NCBI RefSeq assembly: GCF_044324875.1
Contig: NZ_CP172185.1
Reading direction: 5' to 3' (one strand)
DNA from: Escherichia coli
Lineage (GTDB): Bacteria; Pseudomonadota; Gammaproteobacteria; Enterobacterales; Enterobacteriaceae
Length of the DNA stretch: 64,000 nt
Part shown: one piece after another, positions 54,119-55,089 of the stretch
Position numbering within the stretch: the stretch's first letter is position 1
Layout: every line of letters begins with the position of its first letter
Position numbers and translations under genes: made by a program
The notes under the pieces: model-generated
The model's database searches: none
Told to the model about the DNA's origin: nothing
What the model saw: only the letters and a program-made list of their open reading frames with translations

Positions 54119-55089
54119 ATGAATATGGAAGAAATTGTGGCCCTTAGTGTAAAGCATAACGTCTCGGATCTACACCTGTGCAGCGCCTGGCCCGCACGAT
54201 GGCGCATTCGCGGGCGAATGGAAGCTGCGCCGTTTGATGCGCCGGACGTCGAAGAGCTACTGCGGGAGTGGCTGGATGACGATCAGCGGGCAATATTGCT
54301 GGAGAATGGTCAGTTGGATTTTGCTGTGTCGCTGGCGGAAAACCAGCGGTTGCGTGGCAGTGCGTTCGCGCAACGGCAAGGTATTTCTCTGGCATTACGG
54401 TTGTTACCTTCGCACTGTCCACTGCTCGAACAGCTTGGTGCGCCACCGGTATTGCCGGAATTACTCAAGAGCGAGAATGGCCTGATTCTGGTGACGGGGG
54501 CGACGGGGAGCGGCAAATCTACCACGCTGGCGGCGATGGTTGGCTATCTCAATCAACATGCCGATGCGCATATTCTGACGCTGGAAGATCCTGTTGAATA
54601 TCTCTATGCCAGCCAGCGATGTTTGATCCAGCAGCGGGAAATTGGTTTGCACTGTATGACGTTCGCATCGGGATTGCGGGCCGCATTGCGGGAAGATCCC
54701 GATGTGATTTTGCTCGGAGAACTGCGTGACAGCGAGACAATCCGTCTGGCGCTGACGGCAGCAGAAACCGGACACCAACTTTACATACGCGTGGTGCGGC
54801 GCAGGCAGTTGAGCGACTGGTGGATTCATTTCCAGCGCAGGAAAAAGATCCCGTGCGTAATCAACTGGCAGGTAGTTTACGGGCGGTGTTGTCACAAAAG
54901 CTGGAAGTGGATAAACAGGAAGGACGCGTGGCGCTGTTTGAATTGCTGGTTAACACACCCGCGGTGGGGAATTTGATTCGCGAAGGGAAAACCCACCAGT
55001 TACCGCATGTTATTCAAACCGGGCAGCAGGTGGGGATGTTAACGTTTCAGCAGAGTTATCAGCAGCGGGTGGGGGAAGGACGTTTGTGA
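54119..55089 (+). pseudogene. yggR: yggR (PilT-like twitching ATPase homolog) with internal frameshift
   Basis: Homology runs in one frame to ...LTAAETGH (about 54775) then continues in another frame (ORF track 54820..55089, ...TLHTRGAAQAVERLVDSFPAQ...); consistent with a ~10-bp deletion inside the conserved GHLVLATLHT segment. Confidence 0.7.

Follow-up and report, generated by a model that had tools for sequence, protein, structure and literature searches.

A probably clone-specific frameshift in the PilT-family gene yggR of an Escherichia coli genome carrying a type IVb pilus island

In the stretch of Escherichia coli DNA analysed here (64,000 nucleotides of contig NZ_CP172185.1, hereafter the window), the two halves of the chromosomal gene yggR lie in different reading frames, and the same stretch carries a type IVb pilus island. 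Has the gene really been lost in this strain, or was the frame broken during sequence assembly, and does the arrival of a second pilus system have anything to do with it? We consider it highly likely that the window holds a genuine, recent and lineage-specific loss-of-function allele of yggR, which is most likely near-neutral and unrelated to the type IVb island. The coordinates of the features discussed below are collected in Table 1.

The yggR reading frame opens at the ATG at 54119 with MNMEEIVALSVKHNVSDLHL (MNMEEIVALSV) and is native up to LTAAETGH. Reading past ...AAETGH, translation would continue into the out-of-frame QLYIRVVRRRQLSDWW (QLYIRVVRRRQ...) until the stop codon at 54974-54976, and the rest of YggR (TLHTRGAAQAVERLVDSFPAQ...GEGRL and its stop) lies in another frame at 54778-55089. 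For comparison we used the yggR genes of strains CFIAFB20140388 and NCTC86, both of which carry an intact 981-nt allele (WP_001305834.1). Alignment with these two genes showed that the window gene has 971 nt and differs from them by a single 10-bp gap and no substitutions, so that the "roughly 10-bp" deletion of the original prediction turned out to be exactly 10 bp. The identical prefix of 658 bases and the identical suffix of 314 bases add up to 972 for a 971-nt gene, and the missing bases can be written as CTGGTGCTGG or, equivalently, as TGGTGCTGGC, with a 1-bp microhomology at C54776. Intact alleles read CACCTGGTGCTGGCAAC at this site, and the junction k-mer of the deletion allele is GGACACCAACTTTACAT. 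The gap falls after window position 54775/54776, that is, after codon H219 and within the His box (TGH|LVLA|TLHT), in agreement with the predicted break inside the GHLV(L)ATLHT segment, and it destroys a Dcm site, CCTGG, at nt 657-661 of the intact gene. The different frames of the two halves were likewise seen in a tblastn search with intact YggR, which matched the window with residues 1-219 at 54119-54775 and with residues 224-326 at 54778-55086, each at 100% identity, and in which residues 220-223 (LVLA) were absent from the window.

The gene order yggT-yggS / yggR / ruvX-yqgE-gshB is common to the window, CFIAFB20140388, NCTC86, KE55 and TUM1886, which places the window gene as the syntenic orthologue of E. 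coli yggR. With an indel that is not a multiple of three and a premature stop 66 codons on, this gene reads as a frameshift pseudogene, and its annotation as "pseudo, frameshifted" is justified. No polar effect would be expected from the frameshift, because yggR is monocistronic and lies between two intact neighbours, the divergent yggS and the convergent ruvX.

Table 1. Features of the yggR locus, of the YggR protein and of the type IVb pilus island (window positions unless given as aa).
Feature	Position	Strand	Basis or remark
yggR 5' part, codons 1-219, native frame	54119..54775	+	100% identical to intact YggR 1-219; matches TIGR01420 pilT_fam profile positions 1-221
Deletion junction in yggR	54775..54777	+	Alignment with yggR of CFIAFB20140388 and NCTC86
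Out-of-frame tail of the yggR product, 66 non-native residues, QLYIRVVRRRQLSDWW...PRWGI	54776..54976	+	Translation; TGA stop at 54974-54976
Untranslated yggR 3' remnant, original frame, T224-L326 and stop	54778..55089	+	tblastn, 100% identity, residues 224-326
yggS, pyridoxal phosphate homeostasis protein; divergent upstream neighbour, intact, synteny anchor	53397..54101	-	234-aa ORF; annotation in CFIAFB20140388, NCTC86 and a further compared sequence (L008)
ruvX, convergent downstream neighbour, intact, 138 aa	55204..55620	-	Annotation of relatives; Logan gene call on identical DNA
Walker A, GATGSGKST	YggR aa 127-135		Upstream of the break, retained
Asp box, HILTLEDPVE	YggR aa 151-160		Upstream of the break, retained
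Walker B, DPDVILLGE	YggR aa 193-201		Upstream of the break, retained
His box, TGHLVLATLHT	intact YggR aa 217-227		Only H219 kept; LVLA deleted, TLH(226)T out of frame
PilT-type motif, AVGNLIRE	intact YggR aa 285-292		Confined to the 3' remnant at 54778-55089, which is not translated
Type IVb conjugative pilus cluster (pilL, M, N, O, P, Q, R, S, T, U, V-type)	20096..30539	-	NCBIfam; annotation of the TUM1886 island
GspE/PilB-like assembly ATPase of the island, the only one	24268-25788		
Tyrosine recombinase (integrase) gene beside tRNA-Phe	34398-35510		TUM1886 annotation
tRNA-Phe (GAA), island integration site	35715..35790	-	ARAGORN; TUM1886 annotation

The gap begins at the Dcm motif CCTGG, and we therefore weighed whether the strain might carry an intact yggR and the gap might stem from a basecalling, polishing or consensus error at this methylated site. 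Other public YggR sequences lend some weight to this concern. The frameshift product belongs to a 90%-identity cluster whose membership is biased towards -1 frameshifts near codon 220. Of the 14 other truncated proteins in this cluster, 13 break at codons 217-220 by various 1-nt deletions in GGACACCTGGTG, and small indels abound in four of the five source assemblies that were examined. GCA_013422845.1 has 128 of them in about 20 kb, 22% near CCWGG against a background of 3%, with nearly every neighbouring gene fragmented; ECZU51 has 19, including 2-nt deletions at Dcm sites; and indels at homopolymers and Dcm sites were seen across ECZU51 and the two remaining assemblies (L011 and L012), the latter two with homopolymer indels. 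The fifth source, a gut metagenome scaffold, has clean flanks and a 1-nt deletion at the yggR Dcm site alone, which may be real. From these comparisons we regard the yggR Dcm site (window 54770-54780) as an artefact hotspot in low-accuracy assemblies, and public frameshifts at this position appear to be mostly long-read or basecalling artefacts. Surveys of yggR integrity consequently require an assembly-quality filter.

The window, together with the matching Logan contigs described below, shows no signs of low-accuracy assembly. Between 39001 and 64000, comparison with KE55 gave 153 substitutions and two indels, namely the yggR deletion and a 1-nt intergenic difference at 50719, so that the yggR deletion is the sole coding indel in 25 kb of backbone; about 30 kb compared with TUM1886 contained a single 1-nt gap, at 36986, and no coding indel. 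The genes flanking yggR are all full length. Moreover, the gap measures 10 nt, whereas the errors at Dcm and homopolymer sites in the error-prone assemblies examined measure 1-2 nt. The exact 285-aa product was also found on three contigs of the Logan assemblies, for which the reads of public sequencing runs are put together by a de Bruijn-graph method. The two that were retrieved come from different runs (SRR31072984 and SRR31073000) and match the window, including the deletion, at 100.000% identity over 14,644 and 6,856 bp; this support amounts to at least two and up to three runs, which may belong to the same data or project as the window assembly. An intact gene hidden by a sequencing error is thus unlikely, because the window is otherwise clean, the Logan read assemblies share the junction and the size of 10 nt is atypical, and the assembly error that the original prediction had held up against itself is probably not the cause of the gap. 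Chance does not apply as an explanation either, because the gap sets the window apart from 5,424 other E. coli genomes as a fixed difference and is not a statistical pattern. Taken together, these results suggest that the clone-specific frameshift pseudogene is very probably genuine.

If the deletion is genuine, the Dcm-methylated CCTGG at nt 657-661 might itself be a hotspot at which yggR is knocked out recurrently and independently in natural E. coli. We tend strongly against this and regard it as very unlikely, since it rests on two clean examples, the 10-bp deletion of the window and the 1-nt deletion of the metagenome scaffold, among many artefacts. The 14 other truncated YggR proteins were mostly rejected as evidence for a mutational hotspot, because GCA_013422845.1, ECZU51, L011 and L012 have many indels in neighbouring genes too. 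Were such a hotspot real, it would give rise to non-retractile pili or to resistance to pilus-dependent phage or DNA uptake.

How widespread is the deletion allele, and how old? In a megablast search, the yggR locus was found at a coverage of at least 80% in 5,424 of the 5,426 complete RefSeq E. coli genomes, and the gap was present in none of the 5,424. The best matches reached 99.0% identity over 1,011 bases, against 1,001 in the query, and the gap itself makes up the shortfall. A 51-nt junction sequence was not found in any of the 5,426 complete RefSeq E. coli genomes, and a search with a 34-nt junction sequence found nothing in the GTDB species representatives (one genome per species) or in JGI metagenome contigs. 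The exact intact version of the window allele is common, occurring on 677 contigs. Intact alleles differed by 19 synonymous and 3 non-synonymous codons in three comparisons, a rough count and not a formal test. Judged by its near-universal presence and its mostly synonymous differences, yggR is normally maintained in E. coli. Against the common intact allele, the deletion allele has gathered no substitutions since the lesion arose, which points to a recent deletion, confined to one clone.

The surroundings of the locus gave some further observations on the source strain. KE55 is the closest of the 5,426 complete RefSeq E. coli genomes over 39001-64000, and it is only 99.3% identical over these 25 kb; the lineage of the source strain seems poorly represented among complete genomes. 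Between yggM and hemW, a TRAP transporter is encoded by three genes (DctP/Q/M-type) at 47590-50795 on the minus strand. It was found in KE55, TUM1886 and ECZU51 and is absent from GCA_013422845.1, and we regard it as a variable accessory insert in the core region.

We then considered what the broken gene would encode. The intact allele, WP_001305834.1, is annotated as "PilT/PilU family type 4a pilus ATPase" and scored 466.6 bits against TIGR01420 over profile positions 1-328 (NCBIfam cutoff 319.1), which bears out the predicted PilT-like identity. The frameshift product scored 314.5 bits, below this cutoff, and matched profile positions 1-221 of 343 only. The window gene is a member of the PilT/PilU family (TIGR01420) by descent, and its product is not a complete member. 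Of its 285 residues, compared with 326 in the intact protein, 219 are native and 66 unrelated. Native sequence ends at residue 219, beyond Walker B at residues 193-201, as expected from the original reading of a product truncated after this motif, and the second histidine of the His box (H226) and the C-terminal 103 residues are lost. As is established for ATPases of the secretion superfamily, PilT function depends on the His box and the C-terminal region. From motifs and homology we infer that the window allele, from which these parts are missing, is a null allele whose product would have no function as a hexameric retraction motor.

With regard to mechanism, a single 10-bp deletion with 1-bp microhomology would have taken codons 220-223 out of the His box and put the rest of the gene out of frame. 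The resulting 285-aa product would keep the N-terminal domain with Walker A, Asp box and Walker B and would be without the second histidine, the C-terminal third and the A(I/V)xNLIRE motif. Repeat-mediated slippage was rejected as the source of the deletion, as there is only 1 bp of microhomology and a slip at the internal CTGG..CTGG repeat would be expected to take out 6 bp in frame. A split gene was rejected too: a GTG at 54820 would give an 89-aa C-terminal piece without the ATPase core, and this exact protein is not on record.

A functional YggR might conceivably still be made, if the frameshift were bypassed by programmed ribosomal frameshifting or belonged to a phase-variable switch. Nothing was found that speaks for this; the 3' remnant has kept 100% identity to the intact gene, but a recent deletion explains this equally well. 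The change of frame is a deletion absent from thousands of orthologues, the junction being missing from the 5,426 complete genomes, and there is no repeat tract or simple-sequence repeat at the junction, so that it is not reversible by slippage. Moreover, four codons of the His box are gone, and restoration of the frame would still give a protein without LVLA between the two histidines. We regard the chance of such a rescue as practically negligible, and the simple loss-of-function allele remains the preferred reading.

The type IVb pilus island that had been predicted alongside the frameshift was also recovered in the window, with its pilus cluster, its integrase and tRNA-Phe (Table 1). Its PilN-family type IVb secretin scored 416.5 bits against TIGR02520 (cutoff 287.65) and its PilP 102.1 bits against TIGR03021 (cutoff 34.65). 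The cluster also encodes a PilV tip adhesin, a prepilin peptidase, a lytic transglycosylase, a pilin, a GspF-like platform protein, PilO2, PilM and a PilL/TcpQ-like protein, and is flanked by traF, a shufflon recombinase gene and genes for a UvrD-like helicase, TraI and a tyrosine recombinase. The secretin, PilP, the pil genes, the shufflon and the integrase beside a tRNA gene mark this region as an R64/ICE-type type IVb conjugative pilus island. By its gene content, the pilus is of the conjugative R64/SPI-7/PAPI-1 kind on an integrative element and not an adhesive colonisation pilus.

The island was compared with its near-identical counterpart in TUM1886. Within islands that are otherwise 99.6-99.8% identical, a stretch of 534 bp (19163-19696) adjoining pilV and the recombinase gene has opposite orientations in the window and in TUM1886, which is consistent with an active shufflon switching PilV C-termini. 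The gene for a type III restriction endonuclease (7269-10184, minus strand, a 971-aa ORF) and that for the shufflon-side site-specific recombinase (17979-19361, minus strand) are open in the window. In TUM1886 both genes carry a frameshift annotation, with 1-nt deletions that correspond to window positions 9233 and 19016, and by this comparison the island looks better preserved in the window. Between the restriction-modification genes and traF, at about 12500-15500, the annotation of TUM1886 outlines a patch of degraded genes with an IS3 fragment, frameshifted RelE/ParE and HigA toxin-antitoxin genes, an integrase-core fragment and an autotransporter remnant, and the window carries 20 extra bases at 12305 relative to TUM1886.

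Is the loss of yggR then connected with the island? One could propose that inactivation was selected because YggR interferes with, or is redundant to, the acquired type IVb pilus, or, in a variant of this idea, because it allowed escape from pilus-dependent phage. The co-occurrence of the island and the lesion in one genome, about 19 kb apart, is the sole support for this proposal, beside the fact that yggR is otherwise well conserved and its loss hence uncommon. Against it, the same island, at 99.4-99.8% identity, occupies this tRNA-Phe site in TUM1886 too and lies equally far from yggR, which is intact there, with 981 nt and no pseudogene flag. Among the complete genomes, 26 contain at least 80% of the searched 20-kb island segment, and the deletion junction occurs in none of them. 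The link to the island that the original prediction had implied did not hold up in these genomes. Furthermore, no PilT homologue accompanies the single assembly ATPase of the island, which is the sole other match to YggR in the window (33% over 177 residues). No PilT motor is known for R64-type thin pili. The yggR gene itself shows no further changes that would suggest a long-standing, selected state. Overall, we find selection by the island highly improbable, and the tempting story in which acquisition of a type IVb pilus drives the loss of a type IVa retraction motor is unsupported. As far as the data go, the juxtaposition of island and frameshift would be a coincidence.

A near-neutral loss is the reading that we retain. 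The intact gene would serve as the retraction ATPase of the chromosomal type IVa (PpdD/HCP) pilus, and its loss would be neutral or nearly so, because most of the conditions studied leave this pilus silent. The type IVa system of E. coli, with PpdD/HcpA as the pilin, HofB/C and HofMNOPQ, was not detected in standard culture of K-12 or UPEC, and EHEC produces it on minimal casein medium (PMC2649431). According to a preprint (bioRxiv 10.1101/2021.10.23.465551), this PilT orthologue is present in some E. coli strains for which no PilU is predicted. When the pilus is made, no motor-driven retraction would be expected in the window strain, possibly with hyperpiliation, loss of twitching and altered DNA uptake or phage sensitivity, and under most conditions no phenotype would be expected. 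The strain and its few sequenced relatives or replicates would be expected to be without PilT-driven retraction of the PpdD/HCP pilus, and the relevance of this is limited to the use of the strain in work on E. coli type IV pili, DNA uptake or pilus-dependent phages. The lesion is ordinary genome decay in a known gene, and no new mechanism is implied.

Relevant mentions of yggR in the literature are few. A "delta-yggR" described beside ISEcp1-blaCMY-2 was not taken as a precedent, given its mobile blaCMY-2/blc context and its unconfirmed identity with chromosomal yggR. In Salmonella enterica serovar Saintpaul, all isolates of lineage IB have a premature stop in yggR (PMC8731237), so that in this natural population, too, the orthologous 981-bp gene has been inactivated in a particular lineage. 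The two cases differ in that a nonsense SNP truncates the Saintpaul IB gene at 153 bp and is fixed throughout the lineage (PMC8731237), whereas the window gene carries a 10-bp deletion at nt 658 in one clone.

The pilus systems that meet in the window can be set beside well-known relatives. Like the R64, SPI-7 and PAPI-1 clusters, with their pilL-pilV genes, shufflon and insertion in a tRNA gene, the island has matching pil genes, a shufflon, TraI, TraF and an integrase. Intact YggR aligns end to end with PilT of P. aeruginosa (PDB 3JVU/3JVV; E 3.8e-83 for 3JVU), the archetypal type IVa retraction ATPase, and shares with it Walker A, the Asp box, Walker B, the His box (AETGHLV..TLHT) and the A(I/V)xNLIRE motif. 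Where P. aeruginosa PilT reads AETGH-LVFG-TLHT, the native sequence of the window allele ends at the first His-box histidine. In comparison with E. coli YggR itself (WP_001305834.1), all 971 retained nucleotides are identical and lie at the same yggS-ruvX locus, whereas 10 bp are missing from the window gene and its frame is broken.
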